Of a stretch of 64,000 nt of DNA, positions 18,795 to 51,864 are shown in pieces. The stretch is from Candidatus Woesearchaeota archaeon. Its GTDB lineage: Archaea > Nanobdellota > Nanobdellia > SCGC-AAA011-G17 > GW2011-AR18. The position numbers were made by a program, and so were the translations under genes. Location: the NCBI GenBank assembly GCA_964430545.1, contig CAYSFG010000033.1:6394-70393 (forward strand), in the 5' to 3' direction. A model generated the notes under the pieces. The model was given only the letters and a program-made list of their open reading frames with translations. It did not search any database and had not been told where the DNA came from. The stretch's first letter is position 1; each line of letters starts with the position of its first letter.

Positions 18795-18878
18795 TAAAAA
18801 TAAAATTTTAGTTGCTTAATTTAAATATTTGTATAGTCTAACATAAACTTTATATACAATACAAAATAATTAAATTGC

Positions 18879-19715: not shown

Positions 19716-19746
19716 CTTTAAAAATTTTTAGTTTATTATTATTTTT

Positions 19747-20235: not shown

Positions 20236-20251
20236 ATTATAAAATAAAAAT

Positions 20252-20977
20252 CTATTTTTTAGCTGTTGCTGCTGCTTTTGCTGCTGGTGTTTTTCCTGTT
20301 TCTGGTTTAGCTCCTGCTGTTGATGCTGTTCCAGGTGTTGCAGGTGCTCCAGCTGCTGCTTTTGCTGCTGCTTCAGCTTCAGCTGCTGCTTTTGCTGTTG
20401 CCTTTTCTTTGTCTCTAGTTTTCTTTTTTACTTCTAGATCTTGAGCCATTGTTATTAATTGTTTTTTCTTTTCTTCTGAAGGCTCTGTTTTTTCTGTTTT
20501 TATTTCATTGTCATATTTTCCTTCATCTACTTCCTTTAGAACTTGTATTGCATCTTTTCCATCTATCAGTATACCTGCAGATTGACAGCTTCCTAATACT
20601 GTTTTTACAGCCGCTTTTAGACTTTTAACTAATAATGCTGAACTTTTCATCTTTGCTATTTTTATAACCTGTTCAAATGATATTACGCCTGCTTTGTTTA
20701 TTTGTGGTTCTCCTGAACCTTTTTCTAAGTTTATTTCTTTGAATATTAATTGTGATACTGGTGGAGTTCCTATTGTTATTTCAAATGTTTTATCTTCTGT
20801 GTCTACTATGATTTTTACTGGTACTTTCATCCCTTTAAAGTCTTTAGTTTTTTCATTTATTTGAGTGACTACTTGACCTATATTTACTCTAAGTGGTCCA
20901 AGAGTTCCTCCAAGTGCTGCTCCTGCAACAGCTTTTCCACCATCAACCAATGCTTCAACTATAGTTTTCTTTCCCAT
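20252..20977 (-). CDS. rpl11: 50S ribosomal protein L11 (uL11) with an Ala/Lys/Pro-rich C-terminal tail of about 80 aa
   Basis: GGKAVAGAALGGTLGPLRVNIGQVV...TIGTPPVSQLI is the L11 core. Residues 160-241 are low-complexity KAAAEAEAAAKAAAGAPATPG...AAKAAATAKK. Confidence 0.85.
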   Translation of the reverse strand: MGKKTIVEALVDGGKAVAGAALGGTLGPLRVNIGQVVTQINEKTKDFKGMKVPVKIIVDTEDKTFEITIGTPPVSQLIFKEINLEKGSGEPQINKAGVISFEQVIKIAKMKSSALLVKSLKAAVKTVLGSCQSAGILIDGKDAIQVLKEVDEGKYDNEIKTEKTEPSEEKKKQLITMAQDLEVKKKTRDKEKATAKAAAEAEAAAKAAAGAPATPGTASTAGAKPETGKTPAAKAAATAKK

Positions 20978-21070
20978 TTCATTACCTTAAAGTAAGTTAT
21001 GTGATTTTTGAATTATTTATAAAAGTATCGTATAATTAAATTTTTATGAGAAATACAAATTTATTTTATG

Positions 21071-21100
21071 AATTATCACACAAACCAATGGTTTTTGCAT
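21071..21100 (-). promoter_or_regulatory. Conserved upstream element of about 30 nt (copy 1, upstream of rpl11)
   Basis: Minus-strand reading AGAAAGAAAAATGCAAAAACCATTGGTTTG lies just downstream of a TATA-like TTTTAAAAATA, about 95-120 nt upstream of the L11 start. Confidence 0.35.
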
Positions 21101-21153
21101 TTTTCTTTCTATTTTTAAAAATTATTTTATTTTAAATAATATTAATAAAATTT

Positions 21154-21630
21154 TTAATATCTATCTTCTTCAGCAGTTTCTTCACCTTCTCTCCTTATAA
21201 CTTTTACCCAGTCTATTTTAACTGTTATTGGTATTGGTATTGCTGCTTCTAATAATTCTACAACTACTTCTTCTTTAGATTCATCTATTCTTTTCACTTT
21301 TGCTTTTTCTTTCTTGAATGGGCCATGTATGATTTCTACAATATCTTTTTCCTGAATATTAACTTGTATTTTTACTTGTTCAAGCATAGGTTCTATTTCT
21401 TCATATTTCACTTCTTTGTTTAAAAGTCCTCTAGAATATGGTATTCCAAAACATGCTTGTGCTGCATCTTCTTGTGTTTTTGCTTCTATAAATATATATC
21501 CTCTCATTCCATGTGCATTTATTATACAATAAACTTCTAATTTCTTCTTTGTTACATTATTTTCAATAAAATCCATTACTTGTTCTTCTCTATTTGCTGT
21601 TGTTCTTATTGCGAATAGTTTATTTTCCAT
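21154..21630 (-). CDS. spt5: Transcription elongation factor Spt5 (archaeal NusG)
   Basis: NGN domain LFAIRTTANREEQV...GMRGYIFIEA plus a C-terminal KOW. Confidence 0.85.
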   Translation of the reverse strand: MENKLFAIRTTANREEQVMDFIENNVTKKKLEVYCIINAHGMRGYIFIEAKTQEDAAQACFGIPYSRGLLNKEVKYEEIEPMLEQVKIQVNIQEKDIVEIIHGPFKKEKAKVKRIDESKEEVVVELLEAAIPIPITVKIDWVKVIRREGEETAEEDRY

Positions 21631-34807: not shown

Positions 34808-35527
34808 ATGCAAATAAAAAATAATTTTATTCAGTTTAGATTAGTCAAGGAAGATAAAGAATATATTTATATTAAAGGAACTAGTGGTCCTGCTAAAGAA
34901 GTTAGAATATCCAAACATTTAACACCCGAACTTTATTTTTTAGCAGGAATAATTCTTGGCGATGGACATTTAGACAAAGATATAAAAAGAATTACATTAG
35001 AATTAACTGACAGAGAAAAATTAGAAAAGATTGCTACAATTTTTGAATTAGTATTTTCTTATACAAAAATAAAAATTGCAATTAGAACTGATAAAAGGGA
35101 AAATAGAAAAATAAGATTTTATTTTAATATAAATAATTCGCCAATATACCATTTATTCAACACTATCTTTGGAATACCTAAAGGAAAGAAAAGTGATATA
35201 ATAAAAGTGTCAAAATTTATTAAACAATCAAATTTAAAATTCAGAAAATATTTTCTTCTTGGAGTTTTTATAACAGACGGGGGGCGAAGACAAGGGGGTT
35301 TTGGTTTATCTACAGCTAGCAAAATATTTAGAGAAGATATATCTGAACTACTTTTTTCAATAGGAATTATACATTCAAAAGATAGTTGGATAAACAAAAA
35401 GTATAAAAAACCTTATTATGGTCTATCTTTTAGAAAAAAACAAATATACAATATGCAGGGGTACCAAAGTGGTCAAATGGGCCAGATTCTAGATTCTTTA
35501 TATGAGAAACTAGAAGGCTTAGCTTAG
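34808..35527 (+). CDS. LAGLIDADG-family homing endonuclease-like protein; its 3' end overlaps the 5' exon of the downstream tRNA
   Basis: Two LAGLIDADG motifs, FLAGIILGDGHL and LLGVFITDGGR. The ORF continues about 73 nt into the tRNA starting at 35455, so its true C-terminus is uncertain. Confidence 0.65.
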   Translation: MQIKNNFIQFRLVKEDKEYIYIKGTSGPAKEVRISKHLTPELYFLAGIILGDGHLDKDIKRITLELTDREKLEKIATIFELVFSYTKIKIAIRTDKRENRKIRFYFNINNSPIYHLFNTIFGIPKGKKSDIIKVSKFIKQSNLKFRKYFLLGVFITDGGRRQGGFGLSTASKIFREDISELLFSIGIIHSKDSWINKKYKKPYYGLSFRKKQIYNMQGYQSGQMGQILDSLYEKLEGLA

Positions 35528-35618
35528 GAAATCCTTAGGTGTTATGGGTGATTTTACACTACGATTTTATGACACCTGGTGGCTTAGGCCTTCGCAGGTT
35601 CGAATCCTGTCCCCTGCA
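35455..35618 (+). tRNA. Class II tRNA (Leu-like) carrying an intron of about 80 nt; anticodon unresolved
   Basis: Acceptor GCAGGGG/CCCCTGC (perfect), 3-bp D stem CCA/TGG with Leu-type D loop AAGTGGTCAAA, 3' anticodon strand CCTGG, 14-nt variable arm TGGCTTAGGCCTTC, T arm GCAGG-TTCGAAT-CCTGT, discriminator A. 164 nt against an expected 85. Confidence 0.65.
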
Positions 35619-35970
35619 TTATATTTCCTTAAGTTTAGTTAAAATAATAGCATATTCTGCAGGTTTGATATAATACCCTTCTTCAATTAATTTATTTAAT
35701 AATTCAACTGCTTTTTCTTTGTTGATTATATTTTTCTTCAAGGCAAGAAAAATAACTGTTGTTGTCCTAATTGTATTTATATTATAAGATTTGGCAGCTT
35801 TTATTGCATAAGCATCATCAATAATTAGAATTTCTTTTTTATCTTTTGAAAGAGATATAGCTTTCGTTTCTCATTTACCTAAATTGATATTAAGTTTATT
35901 CTTAATTTTTTCTACTTTAATCCATCCATCTTCTATTGCTTTTTTAATTATAATATGGAGGATTGTATAT
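35619..35970 (-). pseudogene. Degraded PIN-domain nucleic-acid-binding protein gene (COG2405-like): in-frame TGA and no start codon
   Basis: Minus-strand frame reads ...KKAIEDGWIKVEKIKNKLNINLGK*ETKAISLSKDKKEILIIDDAYAIKAAKSYNINTIRTTTVIFLALKKNII... The TGA at 35871-35873 falls at the conserved Gly of the LGKGE block. No ATG at the 5' end. Confidence 0.45.
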
Positions 35971-36063
35971 TAGATTTATGCCTTAGTTGACAGCAAAAGC
36001 AATGTATTAGTAAGGTTATTAATTGCTTTTACTATATAATAAATTTGTACTTCTTAATGGTTT

Positions 36064-37488
36064 TCATACAAATATATTTTGATCATTACAATCCCAACCT
36101 AAATTTTTCATATCTTCAGAATTTTCACAAATTTGTTTTGATATTCTAGGATGATCTGGCAGTCCTATTTTACTCCAATCAAAATTTGGTGAAGGATCCC
36201 ATTTTCCACTACTAGAGATTTCATAATGCGCAATTACATTATAATCACTTATTTCTTCTAAACCATATTTACTTAATAGATAAGGCAATAAAATATTTAG
36301 AGTATCATATTGTTCTTTTGTATATTCATCATTAGACTTTGCAGTGTTTACAATTTCTATACCTATACTATCTGAATTTGCATTAGCAGCATGATAAGCT
36401 ATATATTCTTCAGGCACTAAATAATAAAGATCACCATTTTTATCTAATAAATAATGCGGAGCTAATTTTCTTTCTTTAAAAGTATTAATTGCTTGATCTA
36501 TTGTAGTTGTAGCTGTATGGTGCAATATTATTTTATTAATATTTCTATCATTATTTGGAATCCTATAACCAGCTATAATTTCTTCTAAATAATCTATATT
36601 AATATTTAATTCAATAGGAAATCCTTCTGGTATTGTTTCTATATTAATCTTTTTAACGACTTCTGATATTTTTTTAATTGCCTTTTGTTTAAATAATGTT
36701 CTTAATGTATCAATATCTACATTACCATAACCATCAATACCTTTTATTTTTATTTGTCCATTTTCTTGATAGAATTTTATTTTAATTTCTTTATGTATTG
36801 TTATATCATCAAGAGAATTAATAGAACCAAAAATTGTTGATAAACCTTCATCTAAATTTTTATTTTCTAAAGTATTTATAATTGCATTTATAATCCCACT
36901 TTTAGGTTGCTCTTCACCAGGTTTTTTTATTGGAATATAATCATCTGGGTTGCAATTATTATAAAAGAAAGTTGTTGGTTTGCAAAGTTGCCATTTATTA
37001 TTTTTAAACATTAACCATATATTAGAATTACTATCTATTCCTTTTCTGTCTAATTCTATAGGCCAACTTTCATAATTTTTAGGTTTATTTATACTAGTTT
37101 CAGGTGAGGCAGTATTTATTGAAGATCCATCTACTTCTTTTGGTATGAATTTTTTACTTTCTATTTTTCTATCTTTTAATTCACTTGGATTTTTTTTAAC
37201 ATAAATTTGTATACTTTCTACTTGTCTTCTTAATTCTGCTATATTTTTATATCCTAAAGCCCAATTATATAATGCTTGTGATGGTATTGCTGGATCAGCT
37301 GATTCTTTTACTAAATTTTCATATCCCTTTTCTTTTGGTATTGCCGGAACTCTTAAAATATTATAATCATTTATTAATTTACCAACAGAAATATCATTGT
37401 TTATTATTTGATTAAATTCTTGTGCATTTATTATATTTATAACTAATAACGTCATTACAATTATTATTAACACGATTTTTTTATTCAT
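36064..37488 (-). CDS. Secreted N-acetylmuramoyl-L-alanine amidase (Amidase_2/PGRP domain) with Sec signal peptide and a large N-terminal region
   Basis: Signal MNKKIVLIIIVMTLLVINIINAQE. C-terminal KIILHHTATTTIDQAINTFKERKLAPHYLLDKNGDLYYLVPEEYIAYHAANANSDSIGIEIVN matches the Amidase_2 zinc-amidase blocks. Confidence 0.8.
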   Translation of the reverse strand: MNKKIVLIIIVMTLLVINIINAQEFNQIINNDISVGKLINDYNILRVPAIPKEKGYENLVKESADPAIPSQALYNWALGYKNIAELRRQVESIQIYVKKNPSELKDRKIESKKFIPKEVDGSSINTASPETSINKPKNYESWPIELDRKGIDSNSNIWLMFKNNKWQLCKPTTFFYNNCNPDDYIPIKKPGEEQPKSGIINAIINTLENKNLDEGLSTIFGSINSLDDITIHKEIKIKFYQENGQIKIKGIDGYGNVDIDTLRTLFKQKAIKKISEVVKKINIETIPEGFPIELNINIDYLEEIIAGYRIPNNDRNINKIILHHTATTTIDQAINTFKERKLAPHYLLDKNGDLYYLVPEEYIAYHAANANSDSIGIEIVNTAKSNDEYTKEQYDTLNILLPYLLSKYGLEEISDYNVIAHYEISSSGKWDPSPNFDWSKIGLPDHPRISKQICENSEDMKNLGWDCNDQNIFV

Positions 37489-40400
37489 ATTGATTTATAT
37501 TCCATATTATTATCTAATTCTATCCATCCTTCACTAAGACCATTATCTTTAGTTTTTATTGAATCATCTATTTTTATTTTAACCCATTTTGGTTTATTTA
37601 TACTGCTGCTATCGCTGTCATTATCAATAACCTTAATTGTTGTTTTTTTATCAATTATTATTTTTCCTATTAAATTACCATTAATATTATTTTTAACATC
37701 TATCTCCCCACTAAAACCATCTATTATTAAAATTCCAATTTCATTATTAATTTCACTTTGTGCATTTTTAACTATTACATTACTAGTTTCTCCTTTTCCA
37801 TATTTTTCAACTAAATCTCTTATAACATCTATAATTTCATTTCTTTTTGCATTTAACAAATACAATATATTTCTGCTTTGATCAGCATCTAATACATCTA
37901 CATTTTCACTTAGTCCGTTTTTCTTTAATTTTACTAATAATTCATTTTTTAATTTAGCATCATTAATATTAATGCTGCTTGTGTCTAACCAACAGCTTCC
38001 TAATGTTTTTCCTGTTGCTTGATCATTTCCGCATGTTCCTACTGACTGCCATCTTCCATCTTCTGGTGTTGGTTGTACTAAGCTGCATACTCTTATTATT
38101 CCTGAACTTTCAAATGTTCTATCAATTCCAGATGTTGCAATTCCAATTAATGGACTGGTTCCAGATGTTACTCCTAATATATTAGAAGATGAACTTGTTA
38201 ATCCTGCTCCTCCAATTGTTTCTGCTGCACCTATTGCTCCTAATCTTGTTAATGATGCACTTTTAGTTCCATCATAATTTGATACACATTTATTTGCACT
38301 GTCAATATCATCTCTTTGTCCTTCTTTGCTTGCAATTGCATCTTTTAATTCCCCTATTCCAAATGAACTGCTTACTTTTCCAAATCCACAATTTTCTTGT
38401 CCATTAATATTTACACAAATTTCATTATATCCTTTTGCTCCTACTTTTTGTACAGTTTTTTGTTCATATTTTCCAGCATCTATTCTTCCTTGGAAACTTC
38501 CATATTGTTCATCATCTCTAAATGTTACATATAATGGTTGTAATCTTGATGCTTTATTGATTAAATATACTGAATATATTGTTGGTTGTTGTATTTGGTT
38601 ACTTGGGGCATTGCTTACTACTGGTGTTGGCTGTGAATATATCCCACCATAATATCCTGATCCTGAATATATATGATAAAATACTTTGTAATTTGATAAT
38701 TCCAATGTTCCTGCTGGTATTGGTGTTGCTCCTGATTGTGTTCCGAATGTTGCAATATCTCCAGGCCCAGCATATGGTGCTTCATCAAAGAATGCTGTAA
38801 ATTGCGGCGGATTTTCTGGTTCTGTTAATTGATCTAATATTTTTCCTAATTTAGGGAATTTTCCATTTACACTTGTTCTACATATTTGTGTTCCTATTTC
38901 TTCGCTTGATTGTCCTAAGAATGCTGCTGTATATGTATTACTATATTCTTTTGTAAAAAAATTTACTGAGTCACCTATATTATTAAATGAATTTTGAAAA
39001 TTTAAATATTCTCCTCCGCCTTTAGGTTCTCCAAATGCTTTTCCTGTTACCCAATCTAATACACCACCAGTTATACCCAACAATGTTGATGTTTCTCTCC
39101 ACATTACTTCACATACCCCTACACTTCTTATATAATCACAAAATCCTACATCTTCATTTCTATTTAATTTTATTTCTAAACAATCATGATATCCTTGTAT
39201 TAAACTTCTTAAATTTTTTAATCCTGCATCTATTCCTGTTAAACATAATGGTACTACTATTCCTTCTTTTATATTGGGAAAACATAATACTGTTGATCCT
39301 ATTATTCCTGATTGTATTACATTTCTTGGTGCTACTCTTCCGCCTAATGTACATCTTGAACTAGGGCACATTACGGGGTCACATGCATTAAATAATAATT
39401 TACAATCTGAAGGATCCATTACACTTGTACATCTTGGTTGTGCTGATTGTCCTATATTTTTTGGATCTAATTTTGCGCATTTAACTAATTGTGATACTCC
39501 AGGTATTTTTATTTGTTGTCCTTCTTTTGAGCATCTTAAATTATTATCTATTGTTAATATTCTATTTTTTAATCCTTGTATTGCTTCTATTGCTGAAGTA
39601 TCATATTTTATTTGATCATCTCCTCCACCTTGACAGTCTATTACTTGATTTGGTCCAACATTCCATACTTGTGAAAATTTTATTGGATTTGATCCTGTTG
39701 GAAAACGTTCTAATACTTTTACATAGTCGCCATTTCCTATTGGAAAGCAATATGGTTTTCCATCAGGATCAAAATAAGAGTTTAAATTTCCTGCATAACT
39801 TCCAGATAATGCTACTCCTGATGCTGTTGATATTGTTGATTTATAATAATGTGGTTTGCATTTTCCTTTTCCATTTTCAATATAATAATCTCCAAATATT
39901 CTTTTACAATCTTCTTCATTTGAATTATCTTTAGGTGTTAAATCACTCTCCCAATCATTTGTTACATATATTGGTTGTCCACTTTCGTCTGTTGCTTGTA
40001 TTCCTTTCCATAATGTTTCTGTTCTTGTTGTGGCTATATTACAATTATTAATATATGTTCCCCCAGCTTCTGAACATATTTCTTTATTAAAATTATCATC
40101 TCCAAATATTTGTTTATTATAATCATATTTGCTTATACCTTTAAATTTTTTTGAAACAAATTGTCCTGCATAACTTCCGTCAGTTGATGGTGTTGGTAAT
40201 AAATTTGGTACTGTTCCTAGTGCTTTCCATTCTCCAGGTTTTTCGCTTATAGGAAGTAAATTGCTTAATTCTTCATTTTTTTTATTTAATCTTGCATCTC
40301 TTACTAAATTTACTCTGCTAGAAATTAATGTATTTTTTTCTACATCACTTAATTCATTAAAACCAGGTAATTTATTTATTACACTTTGAGAAGCTTTATA

Positions 40401-43358
40401 ATCAGCTACTAATGTATTAACGCCTAATTCTCCTGCTTGGGCATTTATATATTTTCCATAACTTGTATCTTTTGGATATTGTTTTTCTAGTATTGAATAT
40501 TTCAAGCATTCTTGATAATTTTGTATTATATCAGAGTTTGCAATTCCTAACGCGCTTGCTGCATTTTTATATTCTTGAAAGTCTTGGCATTTTTCATCTT
40601 TATAATTTATTTCTTCTATTGTTCCTTTTATTGATTCTTGTGATTTTTTTAATGCTTCTTGTGTATTATCTGTAGTTTTTTTAATTTCATCTCCATAATA
40701 ATTTATACATTCACTAACTGTGTCAAAATCTTGATGTTTTTCTGTTCCTTTTTCTTTTACTTCTGTGTTACATTTTTGTCCGAAAAAATCATCTGATTGT
40801 CTTCTTGCTATTGCCCTTGTGCTTCCTTGTAATAATGAACTTTTTAATGTTACAAATGCAAATGTTCCTAAGCATACTTTTTTCCAGGTTTTTACAACAC
40901 TATCTAATGTGTCTATTACAGAATTAAATTTTTTTAATAAATTTTCAGTTGTATTTAATTGTGAATTTAACATTTCTGGCGTCCATTCAAATGGTCTTGG
41001 ATCTATTGGTACATTTAATCTAAAATTAGAAGTTGTATATGCCCTTCCTGATCCAGGTATTATTGTTACATATGCTTCTGTATTTGTTTTTATATCTGTT
41101 ACTTGTACATTTTTGCTTTCTTCTCCATATTCTGGGAGTATTTCTCCGTTTTCTGTTATTATTGCAAATGCTGTAGTTATAGGTTTTGCTGCATTTAATT
41201 GTAATGTTGTTACTGTTCCATCTCCTGATACTGGTATATCTTTTTCTTCTATCTCTTTGAAGTCTTCTTTATTATTTTTTTGATATAATCTTATTGTTAC
41301 TGATGTTTGGCTGTTTATTCTTTCTACTTTCCAGAATTTATCTGCAGATGGAATTGTTGGTAGTGGTTCATTTTGTTGTTCTCTTTGAATTACGTTTTTA
41401 ATTTTATTTGATATTACTCTTCCTGATTCATCAATAAAACTTTCACTTATCAATCCTTTATATCTTACACCATCTAATCCCTTTATTCTATTTCCTTCAT
41501 ATAATGGCTGGCTTATTTCTGCACTCCCATCTGAATTATATACTTTTAATAATAATACTCCTCTATCTTTTTTTGTTAATTTTTCAACTTTTTTTAAATT
41601 AATAGCAACGCCAGAATCTTCTAAATAGTCCCCACCACCTTTTCCCCCATATATATCTTTTAATTTATCTTGTAGTCCTATTTTTGTATAATAAAATTCA
41701 GCAAGTTTTAGCATTTCTAATTGAAAATTAAAGCATCTTGTTCTTGTATCTGAGTCAGGATTGGTAGTTTTACAGGCATCATTATTTATTAGATATTTTT
41801 CATATATTTCAGCTAGATCATTTGTTGCAGATTTTGCGTCTGCTGTTCCAGGATATTTATCTATTATTGTTTTATATAAAGCAACAGCCTTACATGCAAT
41901 ATCCTCTTTAGAACCATAGGGATTAACAGTTTTATCTAACTCACAATAATCATCTTCTATTTTATTTACTATGTCTTGTGTTGGTGGTTTTATTTCTAAT
42001 GGTAATAAACCATCTTTTGTTGATATTGTTTCTCTTATTATTGTTTTACTATCACCTTCATTGTTTTCTATTACTGCTATATTTTTAATATGATATAATT
42101 TTACACCGTTATTTTTTATTGTTATTATCTGTGAAAGTTTTGAATCATCTAAATTAAAGTCTTGTGCTAAATTTCTTATATCATTTTCTTCTAATTCACA
42201 TTTTTGTAGATTTGTTTCATCAATTATTCCTGTGAATCTTGTACAATCATTGCTGTATTTTCCTACAATAGTTTGTTCTGCTGATACTAAATGCCATGAA
42301 CTTCCAGGATAAAGTGTTTGTCCAACATTTACTTTTTTTCTAATTGTTTTTCCAGGAAGATCAAATTCAAAGTCTGCCCTGTCTGTTGGTGTTATTATAT
42401 CGTCTAGTTTTACTTGAAATACATCTTGAAATGGATTTCCTGTATATCCAAATGTAAAATATCTTGAATTTCCTTTTTCTAATCTAAATGTTCCTTTTGT
42501 TTTTAGTCCTTGTGCTTCTACTGGATTTTTATTTGGATTATAAAATGTTAGCGGTATTAATTCTTTTCCATAAACTTCAAATGTTCCACCATTTTCATCT
42601 ATGCTTACAGCCCGTATATATCCTTTTCCAGAAAAAAACATATTTTGTTCTTTATTTTTTGTAAATTCATCTAAATTCTTATATGGTTTTAAATTTAAAT
42701 CTTGTTCATTTATTCCAAATAAGTTTGTGCTTTGTGTATCTAATAATATTTTTGCATTCATATCTAATGTTATTAAATTATTTTCTGGTTTTCGTGTTTC
42801 CTTATCTAGTTTTTTTAAATAAACAATAACTGCACCCATATTATTTAATGAGTAACTATCACTTCTTGGAGGAATATATCTTACTCTATTTCCTGCCAGA
42901 TATTTTGCAGATTCACCAGATTCATTCATTGTTATATCTATAGAAATTATTCTTGGTATGTTTGTTATTCCTGTGAATACATCTCTTTGGCTTGGATCAT
43001 TTGTTAATGGACTTAATAATGTCCCTAATGTTGTTCCTTTTAAATACATAAATACTGGAACATTGCTTTGATCTAATAATGATTCACGTACTTGTTTTGG
43101 TTGATAATCTGCTACATTTATTATTATGCTTTCTCCTATATATATTGGATCTCCAAAACTAAATCCTCCTCTAGATCTTAATAAATTATCAGCAATATTA
43201 TCATTATATACATCACCGCCATAATTAGTATTGCTTCTTTGACTTGCTGGAATAGAATATGGATTATTATCATTATAAGGATCATATTGCTCTTGTAGTG
43301 CTGATGCTATTGGTAGAGATATTATTAATAATATCACAATTATTGCACTTAATTTCAT
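37485..43358 (-). CDS. Giant secreted protein (1957 aa) with Sec signal peptide and multiple Cys-rich segments; putative surface adhesin or host-interaction protein
   Basis: N-terminal signal MKLSAIIVILLIISLPIASA. Uninterrupted 5.9-kb ORF whose start and stop overlap the flanking genes by 4 nt each. Cys-dense region around residues 1180-1330. The plus-strand ORFs inside it are Leu/Phe-rich antisense artefacts. Confidence 0.7.
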   Translation of the reverse strand: MKLSAIIVILLIISLPIASALQEQYDPYNDNNPYSIPASQRSNTNYGGDVYNDNIADNLLRSRGGFSFGDPIYIGESIIINVADYQPKQVRESLLDQSNVPVFMYLKGTTLGTLLSPLTNDPSQRDVFTGITNIPRIISIDITMNESGESAKYLAGNRVRYIPPRSDSYSLNNMGAVIVYLKKLDKETRKPENNLITLDMNAKILLDTQSTNLFGINEQDLNLKPYKNLDEFTKNKEQNMFFSGKGYIRAVSIDENGGTFEVYGKELIPLTFYNPNKNPVEAQGLKTKGTFRLEKGNSRYFTFGYTGNPFQDVFQVKLDDIITPTDRADFEFDLPGKTIRKKVNVGQTLYPGSSWHLVSAEQTIVGKYSNDCTRFTGIIDETNLQKCELEENDIRNLAQDFNLDDSKLSQIITIKNNGVKLYHIKNIAVIENNEGDSKTIIRETISTKDGLLPLEIKPPTQDIVNKIEDDYCELDKTVNPYGSKEDIACKAVALYKTIIDKYPGTADAKSATNDLAEIYEKYLINNDACKTTNPDSDTRTRCFNFQLEMLKLAEFYYTKIGLQDKLKDIYGGKGGGDYLEDSGVAINLKKVEKLTKKDRGVLLLKVYNSDGSAEISQPLYEGNRIKGLDGVRYKGLISESFIDESGRVISNKIKNVIQREQQNEPLPTIPSADKFWKVERINSQTSVTIRLYQKNNKEDFKEIEEKDIPVSGDGTVTTLQLNAAKPITTAFAIITENGEILPEYGEESKNVQVTDIKTNTEAYVTIIPGSGRAYTTSNFRLNVPIDPRPFEWTPEMLNSQLNTTENLLKKFNSVIDTLDSVVKTWKKVCLGTFAFVTLKSSLLQGSTRAIARRQSDDFFGQKCNTEVKEKGTEKHQDFDTVSECINYYGDEIKKTTDNTQEALKKSQESIKGTIEEINYKDEKCQDFQEYKNAASALGIANSDIIQNYQECLKYSILEKQYPKDTSYGKYINAQAGELGVNTLVADYKASQSVINKLPGFNELSDVEKNTLISSRVNLVRDARLNKKNEELSNLLPISEKPGEWKALGTVPNLLPTPSTDGSYAGQFVSKKFKGISKYDYNKQIFGDDNFNKEICSEAGGTYINNCNIATTRTETLWKGIQATDESGQPIYVTNDWESDLTPKDNSNEEDCKRIFGDYYIENGKGKCKPHYYKSTISTASGVALSGSYAGNLNSYFDPDGKPYCFPIGNGDYVKVLERFPTGSNPIKFSQVWNVGPNQVIDCQGGGDDQIKYDTSAIEAIQGLKNRILTIDNNLRCSKEGQQIKIPGVSQLVKCAKLDPKNIGQSAQPRCTSVMDPSDCKLLFNACDPVMCPSSRCTLGGRVAPRNVIQSGIIGSTVLCFPNIKEGIVVPLCLTGIDAGLKNLRSLIQGYHDCLEIKLNRNEDVGFCDYIRSVGVCEVMWRETSTLLGITGGVLDWVTGKAFGEPKGGGEYLNFQNSFNNIGDSVNFFTKEYSNTYTAAFLGQSSEEIGTQICRTSVNGKFPKLGKILDQLTEPENPPQFTAFFDEAPYAGPGDIATFGTQSGATPIPAGTLELSNYKVFYHIYSGSGYYGGIYSQPTPVVSNAPSNQIQQPTIYSVYLINKASRLQPLYVTFRDDEQYGSFQGRIDAGKYEQKTVQKVGAKGYNEICVNINGQENCGFGKVSSSFGIGELKDAIASKEGQRDDIDSANKCVSNYDGTKSASLTRLGAIGAAETIGGAGLTSSSSNILGVTSGTSPLIGIATSGIDRTFESSGIIRVCSLVQPTPEDGRWQSVGTCGNDQATGKTLGSCWLDTSSININDAKLKNELLVKLKKNGLSENVDVLDADQSRNILYLLNAKRNEIIDVIRDLVEKYGKGETSNVIVKNAQSEINNEIGILIIDGFSGEIDVKNNINGNLIGKIIIDKKTTIKVIDNDSDSSSINKPKWVKIKIDDSIKTKDNGLSEGWIELDNNMEYKSI

Positions 43359-45373
43359 CCTATTTCAGGCCTCCTAAATAATGGATGTTCTTGGTTTGTA
43401 TATATTGATAATTGAATATTTTGCATTGCTTCCATATCACCAGGTATCGGGTCTGCTAATACATATAATGTTAAGTCTCCATTTTGGGTTAAGTCATTTC
43501 TTGTAAAATTATGGTTAAATACTTCCCCACCTGTTATTACATAATTTAATGACATAGATGGTATTTCTATTTTTTCACAGTGTGTTTTTTTCTTAAATAA
43601 ACTAAATATTCCTAATTCTCTTGTATCTACACAATTTTCTATTTCTTGTTTTTCTGTAGTTATTGGCCATGTACTGTTTCTTATTACATATGCAGTTATT
43701 GAATATTCTCCTGCTAATAATTCTATATTTTTATTTTCTAAAAATGTATTATACGCAGTGCTATACTGTACTTTCTGATGATCAAATTGGAATGATATTT
43801 GTTCTGAATCATACGGTTCTCTTATTTTTCCATCTTTTTTATCTATTATTTTTATTTCTACTTTTTTCTTGTATAATGGTTCAAGAGCTACTATTAAATT
43901 TTGGTTTATATTCTGATTTGATGAATAAATTGTTTTTCCAGGATAATATCCTTCTTTTATTCCTTCAATTACTCCATTAACACATAATGGTAATTTTGTA
44001 TTTAATTTTGGTTCATCTCCTGTTTTTTCTGATTTTCCCAATGGGCATGCTGCTGGTGTGCATTTATAAGTTAATGTTACATCTTTTAATGGTATTAAAT
44101 CTGAATTTTCATCAAATGTTCCTGTGTATATTGTTGCTTCTTTTTTTGCATACTTACATATTTCATTATTAATTTCAGGGATATCATTATATGGTATGTC
44201 ATATTTTCTTGGTTGATTATTATCAATTATTACTTCTGTTGCAAATTGAAATGTTAAATCTGTTTTTGAATCTCTTAATGTTATTAATACCGGATATTTT
44301 ATATCATATACAAATCTATGTTCTGATATGCATACAAATGAGGATAATAAACTTGATGCCCCGCTTCCTATTTTTTTTGATGCTTGATTATTTTTTAATA
44401 TATTTCCTTCAGAAGGATTAATATCTATTAATGTGGGCCAGTCCGGTATATACATAAAATTTACGTCTACATCCTTTCTTGGTTTTTTTAATGCATCAAA
44501 TTGTAAATATTCTAGATTTTTTAATGTATCTGCGCTTGTATCTTTTACTGATATTGCTGCTGTATTTTCAAATATTATATTTTTTAATTTTAATTCTATA
44601 TCTTGTTTATACCATATTCTTTCATTACAACTTAATTCAAGTCCAGAATATGGTATTTCAGGATCATAAGCTATTAACATCGCTATTGTTCTATTTTCTA
44701 AAAATAATTTTTCATTTTCAGATTCCATTATTTCTTTTGCTACATTATATAATTTACCTAGGCTTGTATCAACATCTGTATTATAATTTGATATTGAAAA
44801 ATTTGCAATTCCTACTTCAATTTCTAAAGGATAATTAACACTTACTATTATTTTATCATCTCTTATTTCTGTTTTCGTTTCTGGATTTTTAGATGCTGTG
44901 AAACTATATCCTTGTTTTGCAAATGTAGTTAAATTATTTATACATACTATAAAATTTTCATTTACATATTGTGATATTGAATTTTGAATATCTGTTTTAC
45001 TTGGCATATTTAATTCTTGTATTCCATTAGCTGTTTCTCTAAACCATAAAGGTGTTTTTAAATCAGATCCTGAGATTATTTCTAGTGTTGATGGTATTGG
45101 TGTAAAACTTGTAACAGGTAATTTGTCTTCTTTCAAATTTAAAAATCCCCCTTGTGAAGCTACTAATGTTACTCCATCCATTGAAACCCTATTTACGCAA
45201 CTTGATAAGAAGTCTTCTACTGGTTTTATTTGTATAGGTAATGTTTTCACTACATTTAATTTTTCAAAGAATTTTTGGATTATACCTTCTCTTATTATAA
45301 AAACGCTTGCGATGATTACTAAAATTACTAAACCTATAATTATAAAAGCAGTTACCTGGCCCCTCTTTTTCAT
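43355..45373 (-). CDS. Secreted/surface protein (672 aa) with a class III (type IV pilin-like) signal peptide
   Basis: N-terminus MKKRGQVTAFIIIGLVILVIIASVFII: positively charged, then RGQ, then a hydrophobic helix, as in archaeal prepilin peptidase substrates. First gene of the three-gene operon. Confidence 0.55.
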   Translation of the reverse strand: MKKRGQVTAFIIIGLVILVIIASVFIIREGIIQKFFEKLNVVKTLPIQIKPVEDFLSSCVNRVSMDGVTLVASQGGFLNLKEDKLPVTSFTPIPSTLEIISGSDLKTPLWFRETANGIQELNMPSKTDIQNSISQYVNENFIVCINNLTTFAKQGYSFTASKNPETKTEIRDDKIIVSVNYPLEIEVGIANFSISNYNTDVDTSLGKLYNVAKEIMESENEKLFLENRTIAMLIAYDPEIPYSGLELSCNERIWYKQDIELKLKNIIFENTAAISVKDTSADTLKNLEYLQFDALKKPRKDVDVNFMYIPDWPTLIDINPSEGNILKNNQASKKIGSGASSLLSSFVCISEHRFVYDIKYPVLITLRDSKTDLTFQFATEVIIDNNQPRKYDIPYNDIPEINNEICKYAKKEATIYTGTFDENSDLIPLKDVTLTYKCTPAACPLGKSEKTGDEPKLNTKLPLCVNGVIEGIKEGYYPGKTIYSSNQNINQNLIVALEPLYKKKVEIKIIDKKDGKIREPYDSEQISFQFDHQKVQYSTAYNTFLENKNIELLAGEYSITAYVIRNSTWPITTEKQEIENCVDTRELGIFSLFKKKTHCEKIEIPSMSLNYVITGGEVFNHNFTRNDLTQNGDLTLYVLADPIPGDMEAMQNIQLSIYTNQEHPLFRRPEIG

Positions 45374-45445
45374 ATATAAAAATAACCATATTACCTATAT
45401 AAATGTTACCGTAAACCTTATATAATGTTTTAAAATTCAATCTTT

Positions 45446-45640
45446 ATGGCAACAAAATTACATACTAGGAGAAGAAGATATTTACCTAAAGGTCCTGAAC
45501 GTAATAGAAAAAAAAGATTTAAGACTTTTCTTAATGAGTCTAAGGCTAAAGTTTATGCTGAATCACTAGGTTTAAAAAATTATAAAATTATTAAGTCTAA
45601 TTATGGTTTAAGCAAGAAGTTTAAGATTGTTTTGGAATAA
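45446..45640 (+). CDS. Small basic hypothetical protein (64 aa)
   Basis: MATKLHTRRRRYLPKGPERNRKKRFK... is highly basic and may bind nucleic acid. It sits divergently upstream of the giant operon. Confidence 0.3.
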   Translation: MATKLHTRRRRYLPKGPERNRKKRFKTFLNESKAKVYAESLGLKNYKIIKSNYGLSKKFKIVLE

Positions 45641-47506: not shown

Positions 47507-48148
47507 TTAACTATATCTTTCTTCTTTCCATATATCTCCATGATTATTATATCCTCTTACTTCCCAGAATCCTGGTTCGTCTTTATCAACAAATTTTAAT
47601 GCGTTTAAAAATTTTGATCCTTTCCATGCATATAATTGTGGTATTATCATTCTCATTGGCCATCCGTGTTCTTGTGATATTGGTTTTCCTTCTAATTCAT
47701 ATGCAATTATTACATTATTTTTTTCTAAGTCTTCTCTCGGTACGTTTGTTGAATATCCATCTGTCCCATATTGTATTAAATATTTCCAATTATCTTTTGG
47801 TTTTACAATTTTCACAAAATCTTTAAATGAAACACCTTTCCATTTTACATCAAATTTACTCCATGAGGTTACACAATGAAAATCTTCTGTTAAATTTGTA
47901 GCTGGCATTTTTAATATTTTATTATATGTAAATGATAATTCTTTTTCTATTAACCCATAAACTTTTAAACTCCATTTAGCTTTATCAAATTCTGGTTTAA
48001 CTCCTAGATCTAATACTGGAAATTTTTCTGTTAAATATTGACCTGGCGGTAATCTCTTATTTACATTTTCAGAATGTTTTTTATTTCTAAATAAATTTGC
48101 TAGTTTTTCTTTTGCTTCTATATATTTTTCATTTATTTCATTTGGCAT
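47507..48148 (-). CDS. Molybdopterin-binding oxidoreductase domain protein (sulfite oxidase family, MsrP/YedY-like)
   Basis: FHCVTSWSKFDVKWKGV and GWPMRMIIPQLYAWKGSKF match the Oxidored_molyb domain. Confidence 0.65.
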   Translation of the reverse strand: MPNEINEKYIEAKEKLANLFRNKKHSENVNKRLPPGQYLTEKFPVLDLGVKPEFDKAKWSLKVYGLIEKELSFTYNKILKMPATNLTEDFHCVTSWSKFDVKWKGVSFKDFVKIVKPKDNWKYLIQYGTDGYSTNVPREDLEKNNVIIAYELEGKPISQEHGWPMRMIIPQLYAWKGSKFLNALKFVDKDEPGFWEVRGYNNHGDIWKEERYS

Positions 48149-48237
48149 AATATTTTATATATTTGTTATAATATAAAACTATTTATGGATAGTTAAATCA
48201 ATAAAATATTGTAGTATAGACTTTAAATAATAAACTA

Positions 48238-48369
48238 TGGGCCCATCCGGACTCGAATTCTCCAACTTTTTTTAGAAGTTTCCGGAGACCTTCACCACGT
48301 TTACCCAAAATTTAAAACTTTTCAAGGTGACGTTTTAGCCATAAGCTATAGCCACTAAACTATGGGCCC
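48238..48369 (-). tRNA. tRNA-Phe (anticodon GAA), 132 nt with three apparent introns (D loop, anticodon loop 37/38, T loop)
   Basis: Minus strand GGGCCCA TA GTTT AGTGGCTA [TAGCTTATGGCT] AAAAC G TCACC TTGAAA [AGTTTTAAATTTTGGGTAAACG] T GGTGA AGGTC TCCGG [AAACTTCTAAAAAAAGTTGGAGAA] TTCGAGT CCGGA TGGGCCC A. All four stems are perfect only after removing the bracketed inserts. Confidence 0.7.
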
Positions 48370-48406
48370 AATAAAAAATTAAAATATCTAAAGAATAAAA
48401 GCTTTC

Positions 48407-49570
48407 CTATAATATTTTTATAGTCTCTTTAAACATTTCATTCATCTCATCTGTTTTAATAACGAGGATTTTTACTTTGCTATCTTTATTTTGTATATAT
48501 CCTTCTTCTTTAAATTTTTCATTCTTATTTTCATCAATTATTATTCCCAAGTTATCTAATTCTTTAAGTATTTTTTCTCTAATAACAATAGAATTGTAAC
48601 CTATTGCTCCTGTGAATATTATTAAATCTAATCCATTCATTGCAGCAATATAACTTCCTATATATTTTTTTATTCTATATGAAAATAAATCCAGTGCAAT
48701 CTTAACTTTATGATTTTTCTTTTCTAACTTTAATAGTTCTCTTACATCATCACTTTCCCCAAGTCCATAAAATCCGCATTCTTTGTTTAGATATTCTTCT
48801 AATTTTTCATAATCTAATTTTAGTTTTTTTCCTAAATATAATAAGGCGCCTGCGTCTATATCTCCTATTCTTGTTGAACCAAATATTCCTTCTAATGGTG
48901 TGTATCCCATGCTTGTATCAAAACTTTTTTGTTCTTTTATTGCAGTTATGCTAGACCCGCCCCCTAAATGGCATATTATTATTTTATCAGGTATTTCTTC
49001 AAATGAGCTTTTTAGTTTATTTAATATTGAGCTTATTGATATTCCATGATATCCATATTTATAAAGTTCTAATTTTTCTGCAATTTTATTGTTTATAGCA
49101 TACAATTTTGCAGTTTCTTGTTTTGTTTTATGAAATGCACTATCAGATATTCCTATAAATTTTACTTTAGGAAGTAATTTTTGTAAATTTATTAATTCAA
49201 TTAATGTTGGCTTTATGTGTAATTGGGCTGATTCACTTACTTCTCTTAATTTTTCTAAATAAATTTTATCTATTATTTTATTTTCTAAAAAATATAAACC
49301 AGGTGCTACTATTCTTATTCCTATTCCACTTAATCCATTATCTATTAAGTTTTTATTTATTAAATATTTTATTAAATATTTTGCAGAGTTTTCATAATCA
49401 TTTTTATTTATTTTTTTCTTTTCTTTTTTATCATTAAATTCTATATTAACTAAAAATTCTTTTCCAAATTTTTCAAAATTAGCTTTTAATATTAATTTAT
49501 GATTATACAAACTATACTTCTTTGAAGCACTCCCTACATTTACTATTAAATATTTTTTTTCCATTGCCAT
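48407..49570 (-). CDS. ackA: Acetate kinase
   Basis: N-terminal KYLIVNVGSASKKYSLY (ASKHA phosphate-1 motif). 387 aa. Overlaps and is co-oriented with phosphoketolase. Confidence 0.75.
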   Translation of the reverse strand: MAMEKKYLIVNVGSASKKYSLYNHKLILKANFEKFGKEFLVNIEFNDKKEKKKINKNDYENSAKYLIKYLINKNLIDNGLSGIGIRIVAPGLYFLENKIIDKIYLEKLREVSESAQLHIKPTLIELINLQKLLPKVKFIGISDSAFHKTKQETAKLYAINNKIAEKLELYKYGYHGISISSILNKLKSSFEEIPDKIIICHLGGGSSITAIKEQKSFDTSMGYTPLEGIFGSTRIGDIDAGALLYLGKKLKLDYEKLEEYLNKECGFYGLGESDDVRELLKLEKKNHKVKIALDLFSYRIKKYIGSYIAAMNGLDLIIFTGAIGYNSIVIREKILKELDNLGIIIDENKNEKFKEEGYIQNKDSKVKILVIKTDEMNEMFKETIKIL

Positions 49571-51864
49571 TTTTCTATTTCGTCAGGATCTATTCCATAT
49601 TCTTTTATATATTCAGAATGTTCTTTTAATTTTTTTTCATATTTTTTTATTATTTTTTGTGTTTTATATTTTTTAATTACATTATTTTTTTCTAATAACA
49701 TTAATGCTTCTATTAATAAATGATACCTGCTTGTTTTGTTTCTTACATGCATATCAAATGGTGTTGTTGTTGATCCGTTTTCTATATATCCATGTACTTT
49801 AAATCTTTCTGGATTTTTATGGTCACAAAGAATCGCTTTTATGTCATTCGGATATCCATGATAGTTGAATATGACTGGTTTGTCTTTTGTGAAGTAATTT
49901 TCAAAATCATTCAACGGTATTCTGCATGTTTCATTTCCTATTCCTATTGAAGATAGTTCCATAATATTAACAAATCTTATTTTTATTTCAGGAATTTCAT
50001 TTTTTAATATATCTATTGCAGCTAAACATTCTTTTGTCAAGTAATCCCCTATCCCAACAAATACTATTTCTGGATTTTTATCACTAGCAAATTCCCATAT
50101 ACTTAATCCCGTCTGTAATTCTTTTTCTGCTTTTTCAATAGTTAACCATCTTGGCTCTACTGTTTTTCCTGCAACTATTATGTTTATTCCATTTTTTGAT
50201 TCCAAACATTTTTTTAATACAACTAAAGTAGAACTTCCATCTGCAGGAAAATATACTTTAGATAAACAATTTGTTCTTTCAAGCATTCCACTTATGAATT
50301 TTGGATTTTGATGAGAAAAACCATTATGTTCTTGTCTCCATCCTGATGATGTTAATATATAATTTAATGATGAAACATCTCCTCTCCATGATGTCTCGCC
50401 AGCTATTTTTAAAAATTTTTCATATTGGTCTGCCATGCTACTAACTATTTCTATAAAAGCTTCATAAGATGCAAATACACAATGTCTTCCTGTTAATATA
50501 TATCCTTGTGATAGTCCTTGTAGTGTATGTTCACTTAACATTTCTATTACTCTTCCATTTCTTCCGATATCTTTATCCCATTCTTTTATTGGCCAAACAA
50601 ATGATCTTTTTGTGGTTTTGAATATTTTATCTAATTTATTTGAGTAAGTCTCATCTGGTGACATTAATCTAAAATTGTTTTTATTTAATTTAAAAACTTC
50701 ATTTAAATATGCTCCGACTCTTCTCATACTTGATGATCCTATTGTTCCTGGTTTTGTTGAGTCTTCCTCAAATTTTTTTATATTTGGTAATTTTAATTCT
50801 TTATAATTTTTCCATCCTAAAGCATGTTTATTTAGTCCCATTGGTAATTTAGGTATTATTTCTTTTATTTCTTCTATAAAGCCATTATTAAATAATTGAT
50901 TAAAATTATAACTTCCAAACCATTTTTCAACAGCTTCAAGTTCTTTTAAATTTGTTTTTGCTTCTTTTGCTATTACTTGATGTGATAAACAATTACCTTC
51001 TAGTTTTTCTCCATTTAATGTTTTTATTCCAGTCCATCCTTTTTGCGTTCTTAATATTATCATGGGAAATCTTGGTGATAGTATTCCATTTTTTGATTGT
51101 ATTTTTTTTATTTTTATATAACATTCTTCTAATTCATCAATCATTTTTTCATAAATATTTGGTTCTTCCACTATTATGGGGTCATATCCGTATCCATAGA
51201 ATAATGATTTTAATTCTTTGTTTGACATTCTTCCTAATATTGTAGGTCCTGAAATTTTATATCCATTTAAATGTAATATTGGTAGAACTGCGCCATTTGT
51301 TTTTGGATCTATGAATTTGTTTATATGCCATGCTGTTGCTGTTGCTCCTGTTTCTGCTTCTCCATCACCTATTAAACATGCGACTATTAATTCTGGATTA
51401 TCTAATATTGCACCATATGCTGTGGATAATGAATATCCTAATTCTCCTCCCTCTACTATTACTCCTGGTGCTCCTGGATTGCTGTGGCTCGGAAATCCAT
51501 ATGGCCAACTAAAGTTTTTTGCAATATATTCTATTCCTTGTTTTGTATGTGTTGCTTCTTTGTAGAATTTTCCTAAACTTCCTTCTAAAAATAGATTTGA
51601 TTGTAATGCAGGAAATCCATGTCCTGGCCCCAATACAAACATCATATTTAATTCATGTTTTTTAATTAAATAATTTAAATTTGCATATACAAAATTGATT
51701 CCAGGACATGTTCCCCAATGTCCTAACAATCTTGGTTTTATATCTTCAAAGTTTAATTTTTTTTCTAGAAAGAAATTATTTTTTAAATATATCTGTATCG
51801 CTGATAAGTAATTTACTGCTCTTACATATTTTTTTATTGATTCTACAGCCTCTTTTTTATTCAT
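49546..51864 (-). CDS. xfp: Xylulose-5-phosphate/fructose-6-phosphate phosphoketolase (XFP, TPP-dependent)
   Basis: Phosphoketolase signature LLGHWGTCPG near the N-terminus, TPP-binding GDGE block. 772 aa. Confidence 0.9.
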   Translation of the reverse strand: MNKKEAVESIKKYVRAVNYLSAIQIYLKNNFFLEKKLNFEDIKPRLLGHWGTCPGINFVYANLNYLIKKHELNMMFVLGPGHGFPALQSNLFLEGSLGKFYKEATHTKQGIEYIAKNFSWPYGFPSHSNPGAPGVIVEGGELGYSLSTAYGAILDNPELIVACLIGDGEAETGATATAWHINKFIDPKTNGAVLPILHLNGYKISGPTILGRMSNKELKSLFYGYGYDPIIVEEPNIYEKMIDELEECYIKIKKIQSKNGILSPRFPMIILRTQKGWTGIKTLNGEKLEGNCLSHQVIAKEAKTNLKELEAVEKWFGSYNFNQLFNNGFIEEIKEIIPKLPMGLNKHALGWKNYKELKLPNIKKFEEDSTKPGTIGSSSMRRVGAYLNEVFKLNKNNFRLMSPDETYSNKLDKIFKTTKRSFVWPIKEWDKDIGRNGRVIEMLSEHTLQGLSQGYILTGRHCVFASYEAFIEIVSSMADQYEKFLKIAGETSWRGDVSSLNYILTSSGWRQEHNGFSHQNPKFISGMLERTNCLSKVYFPADGSSTLVVLKKCLESKNGINIIVAGKTVEPRWLTIEKAEKELQTGLSIWEFASDKNPEIVFVGIGDYLTKECLAAIDILKNEIPEIKIRFVNIMELSSIGIGNETCRIPLNDFENYFTKDKPVIFNYHGYPNDIKAILCDHKNPERFKVHGYIENGSTTTPFDMHVRNKTSRYHLLIEALMLLEKNNVIKKYKTQKIIKKYEKKLKEHSEYIKEYGIDPDEIEKWQWKKNI

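Follow-up and report, generated by a model that had tools for sequence, protein, structure and literature searches.

Few uncultured archaea are as widespread as the Woesearchaeota and Pacearchaeota. For large proteins of these archaea that carry an SLT domain, binding or degradation of bacterial cell walls has been suggested (PMC8204110, PMC9723730), and related 'vampiristic' proposals have been made (PMC9723730, PMC10936187). Here we describe a three-gene operon from a Candidatus Woesearchaeota archaeon that lies in a 64,000-nt window of contig CAYSFG010000033.1 (assembly GCA_964430545.1; forward strand, 6,394-70,393). The window is the whole stretch of DNA that was analysed, and all position numbers refer to it. 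The genes are designated g1, g2 (the giant) and g3, while g4 denotes the gene for a membrane protein found in relatives. A first reading of this DNA from its letters alone (the sequence-only reading) had ranked the operon as the least explained block of the window, which is too strong a statement as large murein-hydrolase proteins of Woesearchaeota and Pacearchaeota had already been published (PMC8204110, PMC9723730). The three genes, taken from the open reading frame (ORF) list and, for g1, its translation, are as follows.

43355..45373, minus strand: g1, 672 amino acids (aa), a predicted surface stalk protein that is N-terminally anchored or bears a prepilin signal
37485..43358, minus strand: g2, 1957 aa, a predicted secreted, cysteine-rich giant and putative scaffold
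36064..37488, minus strand: g3, 474 aa, a predicted secreted cargo protein composed of a linker module and an Amidase_2 domain

The reading that we favour, with moderate confidence, is that a lineage-wide operon of g1, g2, an optional g3 and g4 builds an exported surface module aimed at bacterial peptidoglycan. The g1 protein would be held in the membrane, or released from it, via a prepilin-type N-terminal helix and would project a beta-sandwich stalk that tethers or presents the complex. The g2 protein would be a Sec-exported, disulfide-rich conserved scaffold bearing interchangeable murein-cleaving enzymes, either as C-terminal fusions or, as here, as the product of the next gene, and g3, a zinc amidase of the AmpD/AmiD type, would hydrolyse bacterial murein at the MurNAc-L-Ala bond. 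At a contact site, such a module may breach or hold on to the sacculus of bacteria that serve as partner or prey, and its purpose could be attachment, access to the cell contents or scavenging of wall fragments. We infer from this an ecological role exercised on bacteria.

On this reading the operon joins an exported giant scaffold with interchangeable enzymes that between them attack almost all bond classes of bacterial peptidoglycan. It would then be evidence from genomes for an action of these archaea on bacteria, and hence for an interaction across domains. It would turn the published 'large murein transglycosylases' into a single cargo variant within a wider modular system whose partner proteins are obligatory, provide a lineage-wide molecular handle on whom these uncultured archaea interact with, and make the cargo enzymes a pool of archaeal antibacterial lysins.

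The fam00969 large murein transglycosylases (PMC8204110) resemble the giant in their lineages, an extracellular location (predicted for the giant), a size class of up to ~3000 aa and the proposed target, and SLT domains were present in 5 of 22, 9 of 18 and 11 of 43 giant homologs in the three samples described below. The window giant differs in lacking an SLT domain, its hydrolase being an Amidase_2 domain carried on a separate downstream gene. It probably belongs to fam00969, to which it was matched by the published description only. No description of a hydrolase-free core of ~1800 aa, an obligatory g1, g4 or swappable cargo was found in the literature searched. Both the type of system and the target proposed for it were already known, and what would be new are the operon, the partner genes and the swappable cargo.

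Polymorphic toxin systems (PMC3482391) likewise join a long conserved N-terminal scaffold to a variable C-terminal enzyme, which also occurs as a separate downstream cassette. The present system differs from them in that its cargo consists almost entirely of cell-wall hydrolases and that a variable immunity gene is missing, the downstream g4 being one conserved family (34 loci) that is absent from the window. There is also no known bacterial secretion system here, and export apparently proceeds via Sec.

Operon structure and conservation among relatives

The sequence-only reading had reported three co-oriented genes with 4-nt overlaps, and the ORF list reproduced its coordinates exactly. Both the g1/g2 and the g2/g3 junction read ATGA, where the stop codon and the next start overlap by 4 nt, and the three genes are by this arrangement co-oriented and evidently translationally coupled. 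They are regarded as real genes rather than chance ORFs because stop codons are frequent at the G+C content of the window (~25%), where an open frame of 5.9 kb does not arise by chance, and because homologs were found for all three, comprising 22 full-length giants, 81 g1 relatives and 38 relatives of the amidase domain. The nearest relatives of all three proteins came from metagenome-assembled genomes of Woesearchaeota and Nanoarchaeia. The gap 5' of g1 contains a TATA-like element and is likely to be the operon promoter.

45374..45445, minus strand: 72-bp gap between g1 and a divergent gene for a 64-aa protein
45396-45403, minus strand: TATA-like TTTATATA, 23-30 nt 5' of the ATG of g1, as read from the letters

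A profile scan with g1, limited to one genome per species, yielded 80 loci, of which 79 were labelled Woesearchaeota, Nanoarchaeia, Nanoarchaeota or archaeon. The sequence-only reading had proposed to check whether the three-gene order is kept elsewhere. This held for the first two genes, as a giant homolog was located directly after g1 in all 72 loci that extend more than 1 kb beyond g1, and failed for the amidase, which was the third gene in only 4 of 18 relatives. The g1/g2 overlap was the same 4 nt in 52 of the 69 cleanly called pairs. When the giant homologs were taken as the starting point, a g1 homolog of 618-676 aa abutted the start of the giant in 7 of 7 loci. The operon was closed in 34 loci (among L011-L087) by g4, which encodes a polytopic membrane protein of ~250 aa. 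The conserved linkage is best represented by these counts as g1-g2(-variable g3)-g4, with g1 as the invariant partner of the giant.

Genes for ribosomal protein S8e and TFIIB were located within 10 kb of the operon in 20 and 14 of the 80 loci, respectively. Because of this proximity, the g1-g2 linkage and the 966 protein clusters matched by the most conserved part of the giant (block C, below), the operon is concluded to be an old, vertically inherited chromosomal feature of the Woesearchaeota/Nanoarchaeia lineage.

Two loci were unusual in their make-up. L080 bears the label uncultured Gammaproteobacteria but has both g1 and g2, and mis-binning of this contig is probable. A single open frame of 1338 aa in L015 covers g1 together with block A of the giant and represents either a fusion or an assembly error.

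Swappable cargo in the giant tails and the third gene

The tails that follow conserved blocks A to C of the giant carried at least 12 different domain families overall. In the 22 homologs found first these were SLT (5), Peptidase_M15_4 (2) and single cases of Amidase_3, 3D, GDSL and SH3_3, and in 18 long representatives SLT (9), GDSL (3), YkuD (2) and, in single cases, muramidase, phage tail lysozyme, Amidase_2 and 3D. An unbiased species-level sample of 43 tails contained SLT (11), M23 (3), GDSL (2), and M15_4, glucosaminidase and SH3_3 once each. The same kinds of enzymes were found among the products of 18 genes situated between those for the giant and g4, with SLT in six, Amidase_2 in four and M23 and M15_4 in one each. 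By these tallies the third gene serves as a slot for variable cargo, and the hydrolases are swappable, being either fused to the C-terminus of the giant or split off from it.

The N-terminal module of g3 (aa 24-233) was homologous to the C-terminal tail of the giant P0008 (aa 1898-2094; phmmer E 8.5e-15), and the SLT part of the third gene in locus L004 matched the tail of the L005 giant. Because of these two matches to giant tails, g3 would be a giant tail that was split into its own, still coupled gene, and the homology indicates a gene split or fusion. A short motif was also shared between g3 and the g3 genes of L003, L004 and L005.

The amidase encoded by g3

Features of g3 were a predicted signal peptide, the tail-like module and the amidase domain.

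37423..37488, minus strand: predicted Sec-type signal peptide, g3 aa 1-22, MNKKIVLIIIVMTLLVINIINA, judged by eye and from hydropathy
36790..37419, minus strand: module homologous to a giant tail, g3 aa 24-233, from phmmer
36187..36549, minus strand: Amidase_2 domain of AmpD/AmiD type, g3 aa 314-434, from Pfam and alignment to AmpDh2, AmiD and AmpD

The Amidase_2 assignment withstood the profile search that the sequence-only reading had named as its refuting test, with 93.4 bits against a cut-off of 26 (PF01510; E 1.9e-26; profile positions 2-131 of 131). The motifs HHTA, HYLLD, AYHAA and SIGIE were located at aa 323, 345, 364 and 374, respectively, and H323, E378, H421, K429 and D431 aligned with the zinc and catalytic residues of AmpDh2, AmiD and AmpD. 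By this alignment g3 contains a genuine Amidase_2 domain in which the zinc and catalytic residues are intact. The label of a PGRP-type amidase had to be given up. The third zinc ligand is Asp431 (within GKWDP), as in AmpD and AmiD, and not Cys, and g3 is therefore assigned to the AmpD/AmiD type rather than the His-His-Cys type of PGRP and T7 lysozyme. The closest solved relatives of the domain were AmpDh2 and AmiD (phmmer E ~1e-7, low identity).

The likeness to AmpD, AmiD and AmpDh2 extends over the full length of the domain and includes the His of LHHT, the Glu of IGIE and the further His, Lys and Asp. The g3 protein differs from these enzymes in its predicted secretion by an archaeon and its fusion to a 310-aa N-terminal module akin to the giant tails. 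The amidase domain also matched phage endolysin or amidase PHROGs. Among the 38 relatives of the amidase domain no full-length homolog of g3 was found.

The giant protein encoded by g2

The giant was divided into the following features.

43299..43358, minus strand: predicted Sec-type signal peptide, g2 aa 1-20, MKLSAIIVILLIISLPIASA, judged by eye and from hydropathy
42288..43136, minus strand: conserved block A, g2 aa 75-357, from collinear BLAST blocks in all distant homologs and the conservation profile
41679..41951, minus strand: putative TPR-like helical repeat, g2 aa 470-560, from a profile search of the PDB with a weak match to the CpoB TPR
40569..41120, minus strand: conserved block B, g2 aa 747-930, with which a long helical bundle begins, from BLAST blocks and the conservation profile
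37869..39761, minus strand: conserved block C, g2 aa 1200-1830, the most conserved of the family, from BLAST blocks and conservation
39099..39437, minus strand: invariant core of moderate hydrophobicity, rich in Cys and Gly, g2 aa 1308-1420, CTSVMDPSDCKLLFNACDPVMCPSSRC...
37488..37868, minus strand: variable C-terminal tail, g2 aa 1831-1957, short here and the place of murein hydrolases in relatives, from tail lengths

The giant had been described as secreted, rich in cysteines and without a catalytic motif, and each of these points was borne out. The N-terminal signal was its only strongly hydrophobic segment in the hydropathy analysis, the protein has 36 Cys that are densest at aa 1204-1416, and searches of Pfam, NCBIfam, PHROG and PADLOC gave nothing significant and no recognisable catalytic domain. 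The 22 giant homologs shared blocks A, B and C in collinear order and diverged after about aa 1830 into tails of 0-1389 aa. When block C was searched against a library of 1.84 billion representative proteins it matched 966 protein clusters (at 50% identity), with 830 of the matches at E<=1e-30, and the majority of the proteins were 1500-3800 aa in length.

The profile and structure checks that had been suggested for the two large proteins gave a beta-sandwich model for g1, while the fold of g2 stayed unassigned, with a weak TPR/CpoB match as the only result of the profile search. This match of aa 470-560 to the TPR domain of CpoB had an E-value of 0.01, and TPR_6 was detected in 3 of the 22 homologs. 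Helices were predicted by AlphaFold2 for aa 794-1024 with a predicted local distance difference test (pLDDT) score of 70-89. Invariant columns of the core run from C1310 to C1416, and the AlphaFold2 model was not confident over this region. In the short tail of the window giant an SH3_3-like segment fell below the threshold (E 0.026; 15.2 bits, cut-off 27).

The putative stalk protein encoded by g1

Two features were delimited in g1.

45293..45373, minus strand: putative class III (prepilin-like) signal or signal anchor, g1 aa 1-27, MKKRG followed by QVTAFIIIGLVILVIIASVFII with the putative cleavage site between them, from conservation and a predicted helix
43394..44146, minus strand: predicted tandem beta-sandwich (CnaB- or transthyretin-like) stalk domains, g1 aa 410-660, from the AlphaFold2 model

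The translation of g1 begins with MKKRGQVTAFIIIGLV, as the sequence-only reading had reported, and its claim of a class III signal was supported by the conservation of K3, G5 and Q6, each at least 90% conserved among 54 diverse homologs with an overall identity of 22-69%. In the N-termini of 81 homologs position -1 was G or A, rarely S, and position +1 was Q. A short basic leader precedes ~21 hydrophobic residues, as is required of an archaeal class III signal, and the motif was present in no other ORF of the window. By these features the g1 N-terminus matches the class III (prepilin-type) signals of archaea, and its cleavage is putative. No gene for a PibD/FlaK/EppA-type peptidase, which would carry out such cleavage, is present in the window. 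The short basic leader, the Gly or Ala at -1 and the hydrophobic helix are shared with the archaeal class III proteins, which comprise type IV pilins, archaellins and sugar-binding proteins of Sulfolobus. The g1 protein differs from these in its length of 672 aa, its multi-domain body and the lack of linked assembly genes, and its processing is putative.

The AlphaFold2 model of g1 (pLDDT 85.4) features a long N-terminal helix (aa 4-38) followed by an alpha/beta region and the beta-sandwiches. The latter are similar to CnaB-type domains found in pilus adhesins of Gram-positive bacteria and to the stalk of SlaB, the S-layer anchor of Sulfolobus. These fold matches involve generic surface-stalk domains and do not establish homology. 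The N-terminal segment was the only hydrophobic one in the hydropathy analysis. The 81 homologs were 620-712 aa in length and none had a Pfam domain; g1 itself gave nothing significant in Pfam, NCBIfam, PHROGs or PADLOC, and a g1 profile had no match among PDB sequences.

A subgroup of g1 proteins of ~705 aa (P0075, P0079, P0080, P0083, P0085, P0087-P0089 and P0091) has a conserved N-terminal extension of ~45 residues ahead of the KKGQ motif (MIPT.E.L..FIKS..FVNFS.IAKHFNI.N.TVSD...). The extension looks like a helix-turn-helix by eye, and if the signal is cleaved it would be freed into the cytoplasm.

Probable export and depletion of glycosylation sequons

The numbers of cysteines were even in the three proteins (36, 10 and 4) and strongly hydrophobic segments were confined to the N-termini in the hydropathy analysis. 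N-glycosylation sequons (N-x-S/T) were rare, with 3 observed against 20.7 expected in g2 and none against 4.8 in g3. Across the families the ratio of observed to expected sequons was 0.23 for g2, 0.19 for the amidase homologs and 0.42 for g1. No depletion occurred in g4 (ratio 0.94) or in the rest of the window proteins (60 versus 67). The restriction of sequon depletion to the exported proteins suggests selection against glycosylation of the apparatus. Export of g1, g2 and g3 is considered probable because of the signal-like N-termini, the even cysteine counts and the sequon depletion.

Proposed function and alternative explanations

The enzymes of the M15, M23, L,D-transpeptidase fold, SLT and muramidase families act on features that are specific to bacterial murein, namely D-Ala-D-Ala, peptide cross-bridges, L,D-cross-links and glycan cleavage that forms 1,6-anhydro ends. 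Since cargo families across the genomes act on such murein-specific features, bacterial murein is the probable target. The sequence-only reading had left the choice between a murein target and remodelling of a pseudomurein-like envelope. The cargo repertoire makes bacterial murein the more likely substrate of g3, and remodelling of pseudomurein is disfavoured. In a published survey, archaeal peptidoglycan hydrolases were almost absent from the pseudomurein-making classes and prominent in Nanoarchaeota, and some of them were shown to kill bacteria (PMC12352652).

Several observations weigh against a module aimed at bacterial peptidoglycan. The window giant has no hydrolase domain of its own, including no SLT, in the Pfam scan, and a murein-active domain recognisable by Pfam was present in only ~40% of the giant tails. 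The function of the g1-g2 core may therefore differ from murein cleavage, with the hydrolases as accessories. Tails of the 18 long representatives also included Metallophos (3) and ankyrin repeats (2), which are unrelated to murein. The g4 gene was not found in the window, including the stretch 35619-36063, by tblastn or by an iterated profile search in six frames. This operon copy may be incomplete, or g4 may be located elsewhere in the genome. The fold of g2 could not be assigned, as its AlphaFold2 model had a pLDDT of 57 and gave generic helical-bundle matches only. A physical association of g1, g2 and g3 would follow only from gene order and the split or fusion of g3.

A bolder version, which we hold to be unlikely while giving it more weight than any of the readings that follow, is that g1-g2-g4 forms the ancestral host-breaching organelle of the Woesearchaeota/Pacearchaeota radiation, as a contact-dependent surface machine in which the swappable cargo opens the sacculus and the g2 core (aa 1308-1420) engages or perforates the bacterial membrane. 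If this were true, this very large clade of uncultured archaea would live on bacteria and not on archaea, by a mechanism without a described counterpart.

The g1 and g2 proteins could instead form a two-component, S-layer-like envelope in which g1 is the anchor and stalk, g2 the outer canopy and the hydrolases are decorations for scavenging or defence. The ubiquity and architecture of the pair would fit, as SlaB and SlaA of the Sulfolobales (PDB 8qox) likewise combine a membrane-anchored beta-sandwich stalk with a far larger partner that lacks an anchor, both encoded in a single operon. The anchor of g1 is at the opposite end, however, being N-terminal where SlaB has a C-terminal helix and a coiled coil, and there is no sequence similarity. 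The structural similarity to SlaB concerns generic beta-sandwich domains and gave TM-scores of 0.12-0.18. S-layer proteins of archaea usually carry abundant N-glycosylation, and the strong depletion of sequons in g2 (3 versus 20.7 expected; 0.23 across the family) runs counter to this. The Cys pattern of block C, invariant over hundreds of clusters, would be unusually conserved for a surface lattice protein, and an enzyme cargo in the form of tails is to our knowledge not a feature of S-layers. We consider an S-layer-like role doubtful on this balance. Assembly of g1 into a type IV pilus, at whose tip it would present g2 and g3 after cleavage behind Gly5 and with the help of distant machinery, is also improbable and somewhat more so. 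It would explain the conserved KKRG/Q motif with its ~21 hydrophobic residues (G, A or rarely S at -1, Q at +1) and the long N-terminal helix predicted by AlphaFold2. One Nanoarchaeia relative also has small proteins with similar N-termini around a T2SSE ATPase, in a cluster that includes an SLT+Amidase_2 protein and is ~10 kb from the g1-g2 of that genome. Yet a tblastn search with this Nanoarchaeia T2SSE and its 697-aa neighbour recovered no T2SSE ATPase or platform gene from the 10 kb on either side of g1, be it in the window or in the 80 loci, and a pilus is therefore not shown. Of the cell-surface apparatus with a pilin-like protein put forward by the sequence-only reading, the prepilin-type N-terminus stands and the pilus ATPase or platform gene is missing. 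At 672 aa g1 is also far larger than a pilin, its body of ~630 aa lacks a match to pilin head domains and resembles the beta-sandwiches of sortase-pilus adhesins, and one g1 subgroup carries the conserved ~45-aa extension ahead of the motif. Class III signals of archaea are, moreover, found on surface proteins other than pili.

The remaining explanations would remove the bacterial target altogether. Amidase_2 enzymes act as autolysins in bacteria, and the core-like conservation of the operon would suit a housekeeping envelope role in which the enzymes remodel a murein- or pseudomurein-like wall of the archaeon itself. No gene for murein or pseudomurein synthesis was found among the ~35 window ORFs scanned, though, and the M15, M23, L,D-transpeptidase fold and SLT cargo targets features that, from what is known of these families, pseudomurein does not have. 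The type and presence of the hydrolase vary between close relatives, which would be unexpected for an essential enzyme, and the near absence of such hydrolases from the pseudomurein-making archaeal classes (PMC12352652) points the same way. An autolysin function is accordingly given very little credence. A virus or mobile-element remnant, such as a tail or lysis module with an endolysin, was rejected as scarcely credible. It would account for the many phage endolysin PHROGs matched by the amidase domain and for the LAGLIDADG endonuclease gene 0.5 kb downstream, but g1 and g2 had no PHROG match, no g1 relative was present in 2.9 million viral contigs, and block C was unmatched in 50,697 phage genomes. 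The synteny among housekeeping genes in many genomes and the lack of integrase or capsid genes nearby are likewise against it. The exported module acting on bacterial peptidoglycan is retained as the preferred reading.

Genomic neighbourhood

The neighbours of the operon were archaeal housekeeping genes, including those for TFIIB, ribosomal protein S8e, Cdc6, FtsZ and diphthamide synthase and an intron-containing tRNA. A copper and thiol-disulfide cluster at 53.5-58.1 kb had been suggested as folding support for the exported proteins. This suggestion was not sustained, as the cluster was a neighbour of the operon in none of the 80 loci. Only its AhpC/redoxin gene has a Pfam match, and its DsbD-like and redoxin proteins were without a homolog in the 80 loci.

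Within 47507-51864 on the minus strand, genes for a phosphoketolase (772 aa) and an acetate kinase (387 aa) overlap by 25 nt and adjoin a gene for a molybdopterin-binding oxidoreductase domain protein. The two form a compact fermentative, acetate-forming pair. The gene divergent from g1 (45446-45640, plus strand) encodes a very basic protein of 64 aa (MATKLHTRRRRYLPKGPERNRKKRFKTF...) with no Pfam match. Its location is shared by L001, L003 and L005 and by 11 of the 80 loci.

The Nanoarchaeia cluster mentioned above (L009/L031, JAQUOT010000001.1) is located upstream of g1-g2 and consists of the T2SSE-family ATPase, the 697-aa protein and many prepilin-like proteins of ~160 aa. A similar run of small proteins surrounds an Amidase_2 gene in L010.

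Downstream of g3 a short non-coding stretch is followed by a tRNA and then by a LAGLIDADG endonuclease gene, a region that is the place held by g4 in relatives. A 40-aa ORF 3' of g3 was considered as a decayed DUF3368 toxin gene, for which tblastn gave no support. The tRNA of 164 nt at 35455-35618 was detected with Rfam (37.2 bits) and missed by ARAGORN, and its length implies an intron of ~90 nt. The ORF for the LAGLIDADG homing endonuclease (34808-35527, plus strand) reaches 73 nt into the 5' part of this tRNA. In the relative L003, the TFIIB gene near the operon (18810-21290 in the numbering of that locus) is broken by an intein with a LAGLIDADG domain. Homing endonucleases recur around the operon.

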